Source of the DNA: Peribolospora baueri
Taxonomy: Eukaryota
Direction of reading: 5' to 3'
Assembly (NCBI GenBank): GCA_029717555.1
Contig: JAMDHS010000019.1
Coordinates: forward strand, 1 to 64,000
DNA length: 64,000 nt
Positions 41,992-50,967 of this stretch are shown here, piece by piece. Position 1 is the first letter of the stretch, and each line of letters opens with the position of its first letter. The notes under the pieces were generated by a model, which was not told where the DNA came from, did no database searches, and saw only the letters and a list, made by a program, of their open reading frames with translations. The position numbers and the translations under genes were made by a program.

Positions 41992-44900
41992 TCACTCCTC
42001 CTCATCTTCCTCGAGGATCTCGCTGAGCGGCTCAGGCTCGTAGCCGGGCGAATGACGGCGTATGGGCGCGGCGACATGCACGTTGTTGTTGTTCTGCAGA
42101 TTGTGGGCAGTGAGCGTAGTGGGAGAGGCGGGCTCGCTGAGGGTCACTTCGTCAAAGTCGATATCGTCGTCGTCGTCGTCGTCGTCTTCTTCATCTCCTC
42201 CTTCTTCTTCTTCATCTTCTTCCTCCCACCTCCTCACGTCTTCCTCGCGACTCATCTCCGAGTCGCCCGGGAAGTGGTTGCGCTCCCGCTGTTGCGGTTG
42301 CTGCCGCTGCTGCGCCTGCTGCAAGCGGTAGACCTGCGCAGCATAGGCCCTCGAATGGTCCGACCAATAATCGCCAGCGCCGTTAAAGTTCTCTTCCGCC
42401 TTACAAGGCGAAGGTGTGCCGCTGGGCGAAAAGTCCTCCCTTCCGCGAGCGCTGGAAAGGTGGTGGTACAACTGTACGGGAGAGGAGGTCCCGCCTCCGT
42501 TTCCTGACGTAGAGGACGGACTCGGTCTTCCTTCGACGAGCGCGGCATTCTGTGCGATCAGGGAGGCGATGAGGTCCGAGCGCGACGACGGCGAAACAGA
42601 CCGCTGCCGATGCTGCTGGAGATCAAGATAAGGATTGGAGGACGAGCTGGAGGACGAGCTGGAAGGCGTCATGGCCACCGAGGCTAGAGTGGAAAGCTCG
42701 GAGGGAAGGTCCGAGTTGGTGTTTACGGGAGAAGAAGCAGGGCTGACGGAGCAGCCGTAGACAGGAAGAAAGGAGCATAGCTGGACCTGTTGCTGGAGAA
42801 GCTGCTCCATGCCGGAAGAAGCGGAAAGGGTGTCCTGACGTTCCCTTGGAGCGCCCTCCGTCTCGACATACACACGACCGTCGGAGGCAAGCCCAGGAGA
42901 TGGCGAGGCTGCGGGAGAAGAGGATCGAGAAGTGTCGTTGGAGCCCATCTGTGAAGAAACGAAGAGGAGTTTGTCGAACACAGGCGTGGGCGACTGCGAG
43001 CGCGATCTGTCCATTGGGGCGCGGTCGCCCCTGCCCGGCCTGCTGTCTCGTGCCGACGCCCCTGCGTCATCGGCACTCGCCCTCCTCCTAGTGGCACCAT
43101 CATCAGCTCCGTCCCCTTTTTGATTTGCGTTCGCGTTCGTGTTCACTATGGTCTTCGCTTTCGCCCCGATGGCTGAGACAGCGTAGGGGGCATCGCTTGT
43201 GATCACGCACAACGCCTCCTGACGAACGGTCATACGCTGTCCCGGACGTGGGAGGGACGGCTCGACGTGCACGCCTTCCTCGGTCGGTTGTCCCTCCTCG
43301 CGGCTGTCGGTCGTGTCATCGGCTGGGGACGGCGCCGCGACAACTATTTCTTCTCGGCTCTTAATGAGTTGGACAGACGAGCGGGACGCTCGGAAAGGGT
43401 CCGCCTCATCATCGTCGATCTCGGCAGGAGGGAAGACCAGGGCGACGCCGTTTGCACTAGGGTTCGTCGTCGCCGCCGCCGTCAGCTGTGCGCCGGCGTC
43501 TACATCGCCGGAGCCGCCTCCGGGGCCGAGCTTGCGAAGGAAAGAGAGACTTTTCTTCCTCGCGTTGGCGAGACGTCTCTGCGAGGGGGTGCGAGGCAGG
43601 GGGGAAGCGGGCACCGGGGCGATATCCTCGAAAGCCGCATGACCGTCTGCACTGATGCTAGCACTGACACCAGCGGCATTGGCGTTGTTGTAGGATGTGA
43701 AGGAGGACCCACTGGTCCTAGATCCCAACCTGATGCTCCCAAAGTCCATCCAGCTGTGCCTCCTCTGCTCAGGTACGAAAGCGGGCTGCGCTCCTCCAAA
43801 GAGCGCGACCGAGGAAGGAGCGGTCATGGTGAAACGGCGGAATGGTGGCGCTGGCCAGCTGTCAGAATTGATAGATGGGAGCGTCGAGTCGTCTGCGTCT
43901 TGGTCGGCACCGTTGATCGTTGACATCGACGTCGACGCCGATGTTGTCGTCGTCGGCGGTGGCGGCTGAGGAAGGCTGTGGGCGCTGGCGGTGTGACGGC
44001 GGAGAAGCGGTTTCTCCTCGAGTAGCTGTTTCTTCTTGGCGGCAGGCGACTCTGGACTGGCGGGGACGAAGGAAGAGGAGGGAGAATGGACGAGGTGGTC
44101 GATGGAGAGCGCGAAGGGCTTCCCGTTGGCCGCGCTGGGTATCCAGGCATAGTCCTTCTTGGCCCCGACGGTGGCGGGCGTCGTCGCAGGCTGTGAGGAC
44201 AGGTCGACGCTCCTATGGTGGCCGTGGCCTTTCCTCACAGCAGCGCTCGCGCTGGCGGAAGCGCTGGCGGTAGAAGGGCGCTTGGGTTTGCGCTTGCTGA
44301 AGAGCAAAGATCCGGTTCGGGGTAGGTCAGTAAGCGACAAGCCCGGACGCCAGCCGGCCTTGCCGCCATTGGTGTCAACGGCACCGTTGCTCGGAAGAGT
44401 ATATGTGGTGGACAAGCCGTTCGAACCGCACCCGTCCTTGAGAGGGTCGATGGCGGCCAAATTGGTGGTCATGCTGGGAGAGGAGAGGAGGGAAGTGAAA
44501 GAGATGGACGGCGAACTGTGGACGGGCAACGAGACGGCGATCAATTTCGCCATAAGACAAGACGTGCATGTAAATGGCGGGGTCAGGTCAACGATGGGAT
44601 GTATGCGTCCAGATTAGACCGGGAGGTAGACGCGGACGAAACTACTTACACGGGACCTTGTTCCGTCGTCGTAGACGGGTCGACGGTCGTGGGAAGCGGC
44701 AACTCTTCTTGAGCCTGGGAGAAAGCGGACAGTCCTTCCGGAACTTCGACATTAGGGGTGATAGTGGAAAAAGCTAGAGAAAAAAAAAGAAGCACAAGAG
44801 GAAGACGAGGCGGGAACGAATGGGCAGGCGTATTAATGAATGGTCGAACGACCGTAGGGAGGGACGGGTGAATGCGCGCGTAGAATAGACAGACAGACTG

Positions 44901-47350: not shown

Positions 47351-48524
47351 ATGCCGATCCAGAAGCACGCCAACACCGTCAAGCTCGTCCACCCCTCTGA
47401 GCGGGCGTGGGCCGAGGTGCACTACAAGGGCGCTACCGTCATCCACTGGAACGTCGAAGGAGAGGAGAAGCTATTCCTCAGCAAGGTGGCGTGAGTGAAT
47501 GAAGGAACGAATGAACGGACGAACGAACAAATGAATGAATAAACTTCCCCCCACCCCCGCCAGCGTCCTGGACGCAGAGAACAAGGCCATCCGAGGCGGC
47601 ATACCCATCGTCTTCCCCGTCTTCGGAAAGACAGACGACCCCGAGTATGCGCATCTCCCTCCGCACGGCGTGGCACGGACAGAGAAGTGGGAGCTGATAG
47701 GAGAGGTCATGGACAGGGAGGAGGGCGTCAGCGTCAAGTTTGGTAAGCCGCGCGCAAGTCGTCCGTCGCCTTGGAATGGAATGCATGGATCGATCGTTGG
47801 GCAGGACTCGACCCGCGTTTGAACGCTTTCCTTCCCTTCTCAGGTCTCGACGCTACCACCAGCCCACACTTGCCCATCTTGATGCGCACCCCGTTCAAGC
47901 TCCAATATGTTGTGTGAGTCGCCGCCGCGACCGATGCGATACCACATGTCGGGAGGCTCACCGATCGATTGTTTACCTCCCTCGCTCGCCCGCCCGCCCA
48001 GCACCCTCACGGCCCGCGAACTCACGACGCGCCTCGTTGTCCACGCTCCCACCTCATCGCCGGCACCTCTGCGCTTCCAAGCGCTCCTGCACAACTACTT
48101 CTCCCTCCCCTCCGCCTCCGACGCCACGATCACCGGCCTCACCGGCTGCATGTTCATCGACAAGACCCGCGGCGGCGTCAAGGGCGTCGAGGACCGTACG
48201 GTGGTCCGCGTGGCGGACAAGTCGTCCGGCCACAACGAGGTGGACCGAATCTACGATGGCCCACCGCACAAGCCCGGTCGGGAAACGTCGGACATTAAGC
48301 TTTCCTGGTCCGACTCCAACGGCATCTTCATCCGCAAGTGGTCCTCCGCGTTCCCTCAGGTCGTCGTGTGGAACCCTTCGCCAGAAAAGGCAAAGGCCAT
48401 GGCCGACCTCGAGGAAGGCGGCGAGGACCGTTTCGTTTGCATCGAGCCAGGCCACGTCCTCGGATGGGTCGAACTCAAGCAGGGACAGTCCTGGATCGGT
48501 CAGCAGGTCTTGCTGGCTTTTTGA
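47351..48524 (+). CDS. Glucose-6-phosphate 1-epimerase (aldose 1-epimerase family)
   Basis: GATVIHW....EKLFLS, KAIRGGIPIVFPVFG, HGVART, FQALLHNYF, EVDRIY, VVVWNP..EKAKAMADL, FVCIEPG. Confidence 0.92.
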
Positions 48525-49016
48525 CTCGGTCGGCCCGGCGCCAGGTGGTGGGGCAGACGGGCGGGAGACGAGGCCAGAGGCTCGCTTGGCCGCATACCCG
48601 TACGAGCCCATCGGCATCGCAGAACGAACGAAATTTCATCCAAACCGCAAAGCGACGGCATGTATGATACATCTTGAATCGAAACGCGTTCCGCTCCAGA
48701 CACGCACGTACAACGACGCGGTGCGATGCGCGACGACCGGATGCCGACGAGATAAACGTACGTACCTCACGTACCGTATTGCAGCGCCGCCAGTCGCTTG
48801 CCTCACTCCGGCGGTTCGGGGATGGTCGGTCGTCCGGATCCCGGCTCGATCCAAGTCTGCCGAGGACGGGGTGCGAAAGGCGAAAGAGACGGTGACATGT
48901 CAGTATCGGGCGCTGGAAAAGGAACAAGTAGCTCGCTCGGCGCCTCCTCCCTGCCTGCCCATCTGTCCGTCCTTCCACCCGCCGATCCACCACAATCCCT
49001 CCCTCCTCTCTCTTCG

Positions 49017-49680
49017 CCCGATCCCACGTCATCTCAGACAAACCTCATATCGTCCGCGTCCCCCTCCCATCCGTCCGCATATACCTCCCCCCTCGCGACC
49101 CGCACGCCCTCTCATCGACTCGAACAAAGCAAGGCGCGAGCGCACATGCGCGCATCGCATCGCGTCAAGCTAGGCCGCCGCGGGCTCGCCTCCTCGCCTT
49201 GACGCCACCCTTACCTTCCTCAGACCGCCCACCACCAACATCGTCATCGCCAGCCGTTGCTCGTCATCGTCAGTCCTCGCGCCATGCTCGCTCGCTCCCA
49301 AAGACGCTCTCGACCCCCCCTCCGTCATCTAACCTTCCGCACCGCTCCTGTCTCCTTGAGGAGGGAGCGATGTCGATCGGAAAGCGAGATCGGAAGGGGG
49401 GGAGAGTATCCCAGCGGGAACGAGGGCGCGACGCCAAGACGACGACGACGACAATGACAACAACGACGGATGAGGGGGGAGGAAGGAGGGCTAAAAAGGC
49501 GTCATGATGATGGAGACGGCGCGCGACAGAGCGAGCGAGCCGGCGAAGCGCCGCTTGTGAGGACGAAAGGGCAACGGGGAGAGGAGAGGGCGCGAAGGAG
49601 AAGCGGGAAAGGGCCTCTGACGGCTCTTCCTATTGATGACGGTTCGTAGGGCGTCATCATTTGATGATCGTGGGACCAGG
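49017..49680 (-). ncRNA. U49: U49 (SNORD49)-like box C/D snoRNA with a large internal insert
   Basis: Box C ATGATGA (49660-49654). The 13-nt guide ATAGGAAGAGCCG is complementary to LSU rRNA CGGCUCUUCCUAU and is followed by D' CAGA, matching my recollection of human U49 AAUAGGAAGUGCCGUCAGA. Box D CTGA at 49037-49034. A 17-bp terminal stem pairs 49663-49680 with 49017-49033. Confidence 0.8.
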
Positions 49681-50042
49681 CAGGGATAGGCAGGACCAGT
49701 GGAAGGATAGAGATAGAAGGGCGCAGGGGACGACGTCGACAGAGGATGGAGAGTGCGCCACTCACTCATGATTCACCACTGTTTTGGTGTTCTTCTGACA
49801 ACTCATCATCCGATCGTCACTGAAACGATGACTCCTGGATGCCACACGAAGATCACAACCACAGGGTTATCTGCACGAATGATATTCAATGGAAAGGACG
49901 CACTGTCGCGAGATCGGACGGCGGCCGATGACGGAGGCTAAATACAGAAAAGGGAAAGACCTATTGCGAGCGAGCGACAACGCGGAAAGCAAGTTCACGA
50001 CGTGGTCAGTAACGAGGACCGAGGCGAAAACGGAAACCGCCA

Positions 50043-50260
50043 CGAATCCCGATCCCTCATACATCCAAGGAAGAATAATACCCTCATCGAGCCGGAGCCG
50101 CTGCGACCGCCCCACGCCCCCAGCCCGGCCGACAAGCGACCGGGAGGTTCGAGGGGACGCCTCCCCGAGGGGAGAAGGAACGGGAGCTGACCCACGCAAA
50201 GACTCTAGAGTGGAAACTGCGAATTTCAACGGAACTTCGAATCCTTGGGATCGGGATTCG
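50043..50260 (-). ncRNA. U14: U14 (snR128) box C/D snoRNA
   Basis: Domain A ATTCGCAGTTTCCAC (50224-50210), domain B CTTCCTTGGATGT (50073-50061, guide for the yeast 18S Cm414 equivalent), and a perfect 14-bp terminal stem cgaatcccgatccc/gggatcgggattcg. Confidence 0.95.
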
Positions 50261-50447
50261 GCGGCGAGAGGGTTAAAGTGAGACAAGAAGCTTACATTGT
50301 AAATAGAGGTGACCGGAAGAGGGAAGAAATCTGAAGAGAGATCGACGAAGAATGAGGCAGAGAGAAGACGTCAGCCATTTCCCTGTCGTCCTTCTTCAAG
50401 ACGTGAAATGCAACAGCGCCCTCGCAGCGGCAGGGCAGAGCAGTAGC

Positions 50448-50573
50448 CGTTCCCATCAGTCGTACAGTGCTGGCATGCACAAAGAACGGTAGTCGACAGC
50501 GATGACGACTTTCCTTATTTTCTCGGCATGGTCGATAGGCCGGGGAAAGGAAGAATAACATCTCTTGGGAACG
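50448..50573 (-). ncRNA. snR190: snR190-like box C/D snoRNA
   Basis: 8-bp terminal stem cgttccca/tgggaacg, box D CTGA and variant box C GAGATGT. cttcctttccccggcctatcgaccatg resembles yeast snR190 CUUCUUUCCUCGUCCGAUUCGACCAUG as I recall it, and CTTTCCCCG is complementary to 25S CGGGGAAAG. It lies directly upstream of U14, as in yeast. Confidence 0.8.
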
Positions 50574-50967
50574 TCTGCTGCTCGCCTGCTCGCTCCGTCG
50601 CTGGCAAGACAAAGGCTCGCCACTCTAGTGAAGGGAAGAGACAAGGACTCACCGAAAGATTGGCAGCGGCCGAAGGGAGGAGGGAACATGGACGACGAAG
50701 GCAGAAAGAAATCACCAATCGACTTTTTTTAACGCTCTGTCGGCGTTTCGGCGTTTTGGGGGCGCGAACAGATTTTCTTCGCGTCCGTTCCGCGTTGCCG
50801 CAGTTTACAAAGTTCTCACGCACCGCGTTCGCCTTTTTCCGGCTCGCTCGGTCTCAGTCGTTGCCTTCGCCTCCTTTCCTCCGACCATCGTCTCCATTCC
50901 CTCCCACCTTCAAACTTATTCGTAAATTCACTCGTCCACTCACTTCCTTGCTCACCACCCCACAATC

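Follow-up and report, generated by a model that had tools for sequence, protein, structure and literature searches.

A giant hairpin-expanded box C/D snoRNA predicted in an intron of a non-coding host gene of a basidiomycete-like fungus

How large can a small nucleolar RNA (snoRNA) of the methylation-guide box C/D class become and still be recognizable as one? The question is raised by a locus on the minus strand of a 64,000-nucleotide (nt) stretch of DNA from Peribolospora baueri (positions 1 to 64,000 of contig JAMDHS010000019.1, assembly GCA_029717555.1), called here the window. At this locus a box C, a guide for large-subunit (LSU) ribosomal RNA (rRNA) and a box D' follow one another closely, and the box D that closes the terminal stem lies 579 nt beyond D'. 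The locus appears to contain a giant, hairpin-expanded box C/D snoRNA, predicted to reside in an intron of a non-coding host gene of a basidiomycete-like fungus. We consider it rather likely that this is the organism's own methylation guide of the Afu_198/U49 type, 627-668 nt in length, with an internal helix that has expanded in the manner of an rRNA expansion segment.

An earlier sequence-only reading of the window had proposed the overall anatomy of the element, namely a 5' module, a box D with its stem about 580 nt away and a folded insert in between. This anatomy is borne out both by the folding of the insert (z -12.1) and by the hairpins found between D' and C' in members of the same snoRNA family, as discussed in the following sections.

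Boxes, terminal stem and internal hairpin

Three general features of box C/D snoRNAs are present at the locus (Table 1): a box C of the RUGAUGA form, a box D with the sequence CUGA and a terminal stem that joins the two boxes. Its C-to-D length of 627 nt, or about 668 nt when the terminal stem is included, falls outside that of a typical C/D snoRNA and is approximately six times the usual. The portion from box C to D' spans 45 nt, the portion from the C'-like motif to box D spans 19 nt, and a single C/D pair is found. The spacer of 20 nt that follows box C contains the element ACGAACC, and one U separates the 13-nt guide from the CAGA of box D'.

Box C, the guide, the D' CAGA and the distal CTGA were all found on the minus strand where the sequence-only reading had placed them. 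The terminal stem of 17 base pairs (bp) that it had described (49680-49663 with 49033-49017, with one bulged A and two G.U pairs) is real, and in the minimum free energy (MFE) structure it extends to 19 bp, with one bulged A and three G.U pairs. The assignment of the distal box D is supported by a duplex test, in which the 25 nt upstream of box C were paired, for every CTGA found on either strand of the window (n=447), with the 25 nt downstream of it. The distal box D, with a duplex energy of -34.7 kcal/mol, ranked first among the 447 CTGA sites, the runner-up reaching -25.7 kcal/mol, and it was still at the top when all 12 NTGA sites of the intron were compared. The nearest CTGA downstream of D' is at 49273, at a distance of 343 nt, followed by that at 49223, at a distance of 393 nt. 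There is no normal-sized alternative, because CTGA is absent for about 340 nt downstream of D'.

Table 1. Features of the predicted snoRNA and of its presumed host gene, in window coordinates
Feature	Positions	Strand	Basis
Presumed intron 3 of non-coding snoRNA host gene, 909 nt	48857..49765	-	Splice-signal motifs GTGAGT...TACTGAC...CAG
Terminal (external) stem, 5' strand	49663..49682	-	MFE helices of 14 + 5 bp, one bulge
Box C AUGAUGA	49654..49660	-	Alignment with Afu_198 and SNORD49
Spacer element ACGAACC	49641..49647	-	Complementary to GGUUUGU directly before box D
13-nt D' guide AUAGGAAGAGCCG (DNA ATAGGAAGAGCCG)	49621..49633	-	Motif reading
Box D' CAGA	49616..49619	-	Same register as AAGA of Afu_198 members
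Hairpin 5' arm, C/U-rich (C 45%, U 29%)	49360..49607	-	MFE, shuffles, arm alignment
AUCGACAU near hairpin tip	49370..49377	-	Identical to apical-loop motif of L008-type Afu_198 hairpins
Apical tetraloop UCAA of MFE hairpin	49356..49359	-	MFE
Hairpin 3' arm, G-rich (G 48%)	49060..49355	-	MFE, shuffles, arm alignment
C'-like CGAUAUGA directly 3' of hairpin (tentative)	49045..49052	-	Position matches CGAUGC / CGGUGC of Afu_198 members
Pre-D element GGUUUGU	49038..49044	-	Too short for a second guide
Box D CUGA	49034..49037	-	Motif and terminal-stem duplex rank
Terminal stem, 3' strand	49015..49033	-	MFE and duplex test
U14 homologue with 107-nt insert and 12-bp terminal stem, preceding intron	50045..50258	-	SNORD14 match, fold
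Candidate snR190-like C/D snoRNA, intron 1	50435..50585	-	Long terminal stem, z -3.2; weak Rfam

In the MFE structure the interval from D' to box D forms one long irregular hairpin of about 550 nt. For the 681 nt between 49690 and 49010 the folding energy is -380.8 kcal/mol, compared with -300.9 +/- 6.6 kcal/mol for 20 dinucleotide shuffles (z -12.1). Whole-sequence shuffles overstate the specificity of a hairpin whose 5' arm is C/U-rich and whose 3' arm is G-rich; hence the two arms were also shuffled separately (mean -314.6, z -9.3; 60 shuffles) and the sequence was shuffled within 40-nt blocks (mean -323.4, z -8.8; 60 shuffles). The pairing of the hairpin is sequence-specific, beyond mere composition. 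Furthermore, it is strand-specific: the same stretch read on the plus strand folds to -292.5 kcal/mol (z -3.1), so that the minus strand is better by 88 kcal/mol. The three nested pairings proposed in the sequence-only reading are true complementarities (13 bp with three G.U pairs, a perfect 8 bp and a perfect 12 bp), but the MFE structure partly uses other registers and leaves the perfect 12 bp unused.

When the 5' arm (49607-49360) is aligned with the reverse-complemented 3' arm (49355-49060), 184 matches and 66 gap columns result. The mismatches comprise 30 of the G.U type (22 U.G and 8 G.U), 3 of the A.C type and 22 others. The proportion of G.U among the transition-type mismatches (30/33) departs both from a symmetric null (p = 7e-7) and from a null based on the composition of the arms (p = 6e-4). 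Since the neutral decay of an inverted repeat should yield as many G.U as A.C mismatches, this strand-biased excess is read as the mark of selection for pairing in the minus-strand transcript, with a strongly strand-biased mutation process as the only alternative that we see. In the MFE structure the arms are joined by 226 pairs, of which 34 are G.U, and the hairpin is not a near-perfect double-stranded RNA, because its longest run of Watson-Crick pairs only is 8 bp.

A second copy of the insert is absent elsewhere in the 64-kb window, and a repeat origin has no support there. The permissive Rfam scan and the search for copies in the window revealed no Rfam family or repeat inside the insert, which consists of an irregular hairpin; the suggestion, made in the sequence-only reading, of a snoRNP-capped long non-coding RNA (snoRNP, small nucleolar ribonucleoprotein) carrying a cargo domain is thus left without support. 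An open reading frame (ORF) of 477 amino acids (aa) that overlaps the 3' arm on the plus strand (47740-49173) was rejected as spurious. It has no Pfam match, is rich in R, S, P and A, and is most likely an artefact of the high G+C content.

Family relations and predicted target

The known class that the locus resembles is the Afu_198/U49-type guide, here apparently in an expanded form. The A. fumigatus RNA Afu-198 is known from a cloned cDNA of 130 nt, and its predicted targets are Cm2856 and Um2859 in 26S rRNA (PMC2377427). The locus shares with the Rfam family Afu_198 (RF01500) its box C, the spacing, the guide UAGGAAGAGCCG and the xAGAGG sequence of the D' region; the 13-nt guide, one nt away from CAGA, is identical to that of Afu_198. 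The same holds for the architecture, in the order C, guide, D', hairpin, C' (tentative in the window), short interval and D, and for the predicted target C, which is Cm2856 in A. fumigatus 26S rRNA (PMC2377427). Nevertheless, the two differ in several respects. The hairpin of the window measures about 550 nt compared with 23-229 nt in the 12 members described below, D' is CAGA rather than AAGA, and the 3' module reads CGAUAUGA, 7 nt and CUGA instead of CGAUGC, 12-16 nt and CUGA. Moreover, the element of the window is intronic, in a presumed host with several snoRNAs, whereas Afu-198 is listed as intergenic (PMC2377427).

The vertebrate SNORD49 (U49) has the guide and the D' register in common with the window. 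However, SNORD49 is about 71 nt long and lacks an internal hairpin, and no homology beyond the guide module emerged. The name U49 is itself ambiguous, as a plant RNA of that name is set against a different site in an N. crassa table (PMC2780460).

Metagenome contigs were scanned with the guide and D' pattern TAGGAAGAGCCGNNAGAGG, yielding 78 loci, 18 of them with RTGATGA no more than 70 nt upstream. L037 was left out, since a mere 8 nt or so separates its RTGATGA from the guide and the surrounding DNA is AT-rich, without the family-like layout, as were the duplicates L043, L051 and L068 (equal to L031) and L064 (equal to L053) and the near-identical L059, which carries the same snoRNA as L008. 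The 12 remaining loci were analysed. The single TCAGAGG match (L028) has no box C. All of the 12 members exceed the Afu_198 gathering score (44-84 bits) and have a common layout: box C, spacer, guide, AAGAGG, a single hairpin, CGAUGC or CGGUGC, 12-16 nt and CUGA. Their hairpins measure 23, 28, 28, 28, 31, 31, 31, 38, 59, 61, 63 and 229 nt, and their C-to-D lengths range from 99 to 305 nt. The interval between D' and C' is occupied by a single hairpin of variable length at the same site in 12/12 members and in the window.

RNAalifold analysis of 11 of the 12 members (L031 was omitted for its length) revealed two helices, one at the base of the hairpin and the other joining the post-C spacer to the pre-D element, with compensatory changes in three pairs of the latter. 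Its counterpart in the window would be formed by ACGAACC and GGUUUGU, with 7 bp possible, and is consistent with the family pattern, though not a proof of it.

The longest member (L031:1229-1573, minus strand; identical on L043, L051 and L068) scores 60.4 bits as Afu_198 and is 305 nt long, with a hairpin of 229 nt. In this hairpin, too, the 5' arm is C/U-rich and the 3' arm G-rich, and 15 G.U mismatches stand against 2 A.C; it represents hairpin growth of the same kind that arose independently. Apical loops with the sequence CGUCAU, CGACAU, CGUCAC, CGUCAA or CGCCAA are conserved in 10/12 member hairpins (L005, L008, L018, L031, L038, L053, L054, L057, L070 and L071). One pair of the hairpin stem runs from G-C through G.U to A-U across L038, L070 and L057. 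Within +/-1.5 kb of the 12 members, neither U14 nor any other family was found at E <= 0.001. A scan of bacterial and archaeal genome contigs with TAGGAAGAGCCGNCAGAGG gave 7 matches, all of them in bacterial records, that are taken as chance.

In the proposed mechanism, the host transcript would be spliced and its intron debranched, after which exonucleases would trim it back to the snoRNP. The 19-bp external stem would join box C with the distant box D, allowing the core proteins of the class, Nop1, Nop56, Nop58 and Snu13, to assemble. The approximately 550 nt between D' and the C'-like motif would represent the D'-C' hairpin of the family, hugely lengthened, and would set D' beside C'. The 13-nt guide would then pair with LSU rRNA to direct the 2'-O-methylation of the C at the fifth base pair upstream of D', a residue that is predicted to adjoin the peptidyl-transferase centre. 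The target of SNORD49 is presumably the equivalent site, Cm4426 of human 28S rRNA in the older numbering. S. cerevisiae is not known to carry a methylation at the predicted C.

A cargo function of the hairpin itself is unlikely; it would be an outgrowth, similar to an expansion segment, that is tolerated while it remains paired. Such a passive origin is favoured because the helix is irregular, the lengths in the family are graded and a neighbouring snoRNA is enlarged as well. The octamer AUCGACAU, at a distance of 11-18 nt from the apex of the MFE hairpin, is suggestive of a stem that lengthened while its tip was kept. A stretch of 50 nt would be expected to contain about 0.012 such motifs, but the comparison was made post hoc. 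It has also been considered that the hairpin of about 550 nt is a selected functional domain of a snoRNP-anchored RNA, such as a nucleolar scaffold, a protein-binding arm or a nuclease-cut two-piece guide. Here, the repeated independent growth (229 nt in L031 and about 550 nt in the window), with the same C/U-rich 5' and G-rich 3' arms, would indicate selection for function. We find this possibility unlikely.

Several observations weigh against the assignment of the locus to an expanded Afu_198/U49-type guide. At gathering thresholds, Rfam recognizes only a tRNA in the window. The permissive 2-kb search gave 24.4 bits for Afu_198 (E 0.057, gathering 40) and 19 bits for SNORD49 (RF00277; E 0.16, 49664-49612, gathering 37), both alignments being limited to the 5' module of box C, guide and D'; the 3' module alone retrieved nothing from Rfam beyond a 10-bit archaeal sR53. 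Formal Rfam membership failed because the 5' module alone could be aligned. The sequence-only reading had called the element U49-like, which stands at the level of the guide and does not extend past the 5' module, and it had named Rfam and folding as a check; neither family reached its threshold, while the fold goes far beyond the shuffles. Our own covariance model, built from 11 members, had this site as its sole match in the window, with 13 bits and E 1.7, and its 3' half was misaligned, forced onto adjacent sequence; this match is uninformative. The energy of the spacer/pre-D helix in the window ranks only 33/447, and the assignment of CGAUAUGA as C' is tentative.

The family comparison adds to these points. 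Although UAGGAAGAGCCG is identical in 12/12 members, it was part of the collecting pattern; this identity is not independent evidence, the pattern having been built on the guide of the window. All 12 members are of the GGAAGAGG (ascomycete-like) type, and no basidiomycete relative emerged from the scans of metagenome contigs or of bacterial and archaeal genomes. In L031, the G.U excess is not significant under a composition-aware null (p 0.11). Finally, the complementarity between guide and rRNA refers to an LSU sequence that we take to be universal, in addition to the published Afu-198 prediction, and the target C, that of UCGG-C-UCUUCC, is one that we presume, from the E. coli numbering, to be the equivalent of 23S C2510.

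Alternative explanations and comparison with known systems

The same features could belong to a relic, that is, a normal Afu_198/U49-type snoRNA in which an inverted duplication took place or a palindrome grew, and which no longer assembles or guides while another copy, or none, serves the site. Its size is far beyond the known range, 90% of fungal C/D snoRNAs measuring 80-135 nt (PMC5824354), and the Rfam scores below thresholds, the degenerate C' and a C'-D interval too short for a second guide fit a disabled copy. However, box C, guide, D', box D and the 19-bp terminal stem are all intact, the arms keep a 30:3 bias of G.U over A.C that is not expected of the neutral decay of an inverted repeat at the DNA level, and a family member that passes the Rfam threshold bears a 229-nt version of the hairpin, all of which makes a relic unlikely. 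It is likewise improbable that the long hairpin is cut. The roughly 226 bp of mostly continuous helix might be a substrate for a double-strand-specific nuclease, and an RNase III-type cut could release small RNAs, or leave a two-piece snoRNA held together by the remaining helix and the terminal stem. The signal of yeast Rnt1 is an AGNN loop. The apical loop found here, UCAA, is not of this type, and the helix is irregular, with at most 8 bp of uninterrupted Watson-Crick pairing and 34/226 pairs of the G.U type.

Two further explanations concern the intron and the choice of box D. Structure-assisted splicing is known in long yeast introns, and the stem and the hairpin could mainly bring the 5' splice site near the branch point of the 909-nt intron, with the snoRNA modules being secondary or incidental; indeed, the effective distance between the two drops from about 860 to about 200 nt. 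Nevertheless, this leaves the length of the intron unexplained, the hairpin being most of it, and the same hairpin site and its growth occur in Afu_198 members that the A. fumigatus data place in intergenic DNA (PMC2377427). Folding of the intron is therefore very unlikely as the main role, although it is compatible with an expanded guide rather than exclusive of it. The sequence-only reading had also raised a nearer box D, at 49273-49270, with which the snoRNA would be short; the distal stem would then be a coincidence. CTGA does occur at 49273 and 49223, and weak matches to the archaeal sR2, sR18 and sR53 families lie around 49184-49274, with Rfam E values of only 0.6-1.1. Even these two sites lie at distances of 343 and 393 nt from D', the pairing of their flanks with that of box C amounts to only -14.3 and -15.1 kcal/mol, respectively, versus -34.7 kcal/mol for the distal site, and the family-specific pre-D element is missing at either of them. 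The distal box D was consequently kept, and the short form is regarded as extremely improbable.

An expanded Afu_198/U49-type guide can be compared with other large RNAs of this kind. The sno-lncRNAs attributed to Yin et al. (2012) are intron-derived long non-coding RNAs that reportedly carry a complete snoRNA at each end. The predicted RNA would resemble them in being intron-derived and several hundred nt long, with ends that are predicted to be protected by a snoRNP. Unlike the sno-lncRNAs, it has one box C and one box D that pair together, not two complete snoRNAs, and its interior corresponds to the D'-C' helix of the snoRNA.

Fungal snoRNAs with large lineage-specific extra sequence are also known. 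Nc_CD_53, with 200-300 nt, is the sole outlying fungal C/D family (PMC5824354), CD53 measuring 212 nt in N. crassa (PMC2780460), and the H/ACA snoRNA snR86 reaches about 1 kb (PMC5824354). Nc_CD_53 differs from the element of the window in being an orphan and at most half its size, and snR86 in belonging to the other snoRNA class; an expanded D'-C' hairpin is not described for either of them in the available portions of PMC5824354 and PMC2780460. The U3 of N. crassa measures 262-275 nt (PMC2780460). A length of up to 164 nt covers 95% of the collected eukaryotic C/D snoRNAs, and longer training examples are dropped by the predictor concerned (PMC12309372). In our literature search, which covered titles, abstracts and selected passages, no C/D guide with a hairpin expanded to this size was found to be described.

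Host gene, surroundings and implications

The locus is flanked by a plus-strand gene ending at 48524, whose closest named matches are basidiomycete glucose-6-phosphate 1-epimerases (<=42% identity, PF01263), and, on the other side, by a plus-strand DEAD-box helicase gene. The minus strand between the flanking genes bears three GT[AG]AG[TC] sites (50652, 50295 and 49765), each followed by a CTGAC-type branch motif and AG, and contains no Pfam-bearing ORF. In the last of these presumed introns, the motif reading gives GTGAGT at 49765-49760, the branch-like TACTGAC (with its CTGA at 48903-48900) and a CAG end at 48857. The host is presumed to be a dedicated non-coding gene, whose introns would contain an snR190-like candidate, U14 and the giant snoRNA.

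The U14 homologue (50250-50053, 198 nt) scores 38.9 bits with SNORD14, below the gathering score of 64, with E values of 5.2e-06 in the 2-kb search and 1.7e-4 in the search of the whole window. Both 18S-complementary domains are present, and the 107-nt insert lies inside an internal hairpin. Its boxes are non-canonical (box C GGAUUC, box D AUGA), as if the pair between position 5 of box C and position 1 of box D had been swapped from G-C to U-A. In the snR190-like candidate, AGAUGU is found at 50563-50558 and CUGA at 50459-50456, and the Rfam scores are weak (15.2 bits for snR190 and 19.1 bits for snR107). Long external stems recur in all three snoRNAs and candidates, and an enlarged internal hairpin is found in U14 as well. 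The linkage of the snR190-like candidate with U14 is reminiscent of yeast and Neurospora, where snR190 and U14 form a pair; in Neurospora, homologues of the two are linked in a host of the UHG-like type (PMC2780460).

Two additional observations were made in the surroundings. A second perfect ATGATGA (49803-49809, minus strand) precedes the GTGAGT of intron 3 by about 40 nt, within the presumed third exon, and is accompanied by a weak archaeal sR30 match of 14.8 bits; neither a box D nor a terminal stem was found for it. Further away, an 853-aa ORF (41992-44553, minus strand) encodes a Ser/Pro/Ala-rich sequence with an acidic C-terminus and has no Pfam family at E <= 0.01.

If it is made as predicted, the RNA described here would be by far the longest methylation-guide C/D snoRNA among the fungal surveys compared, in which the largest C/D family measures 200-300 nt (PMC5824354). 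It would indicate that growth in the manner of an rRNA expansion segment is possible for the D'-C' linker of a C/D snoRNA even as pairing is kept under selection. Genes of this kind would be missed by length-limited snoRNA finders. Furthermore, because the presumed host carries a U14 homologue and an snR190-like candidate, members of families that have been reported as seemingly absent in Basidiomycota (PMC5824354), some of the reported snoRNA losses may be failures of detection.

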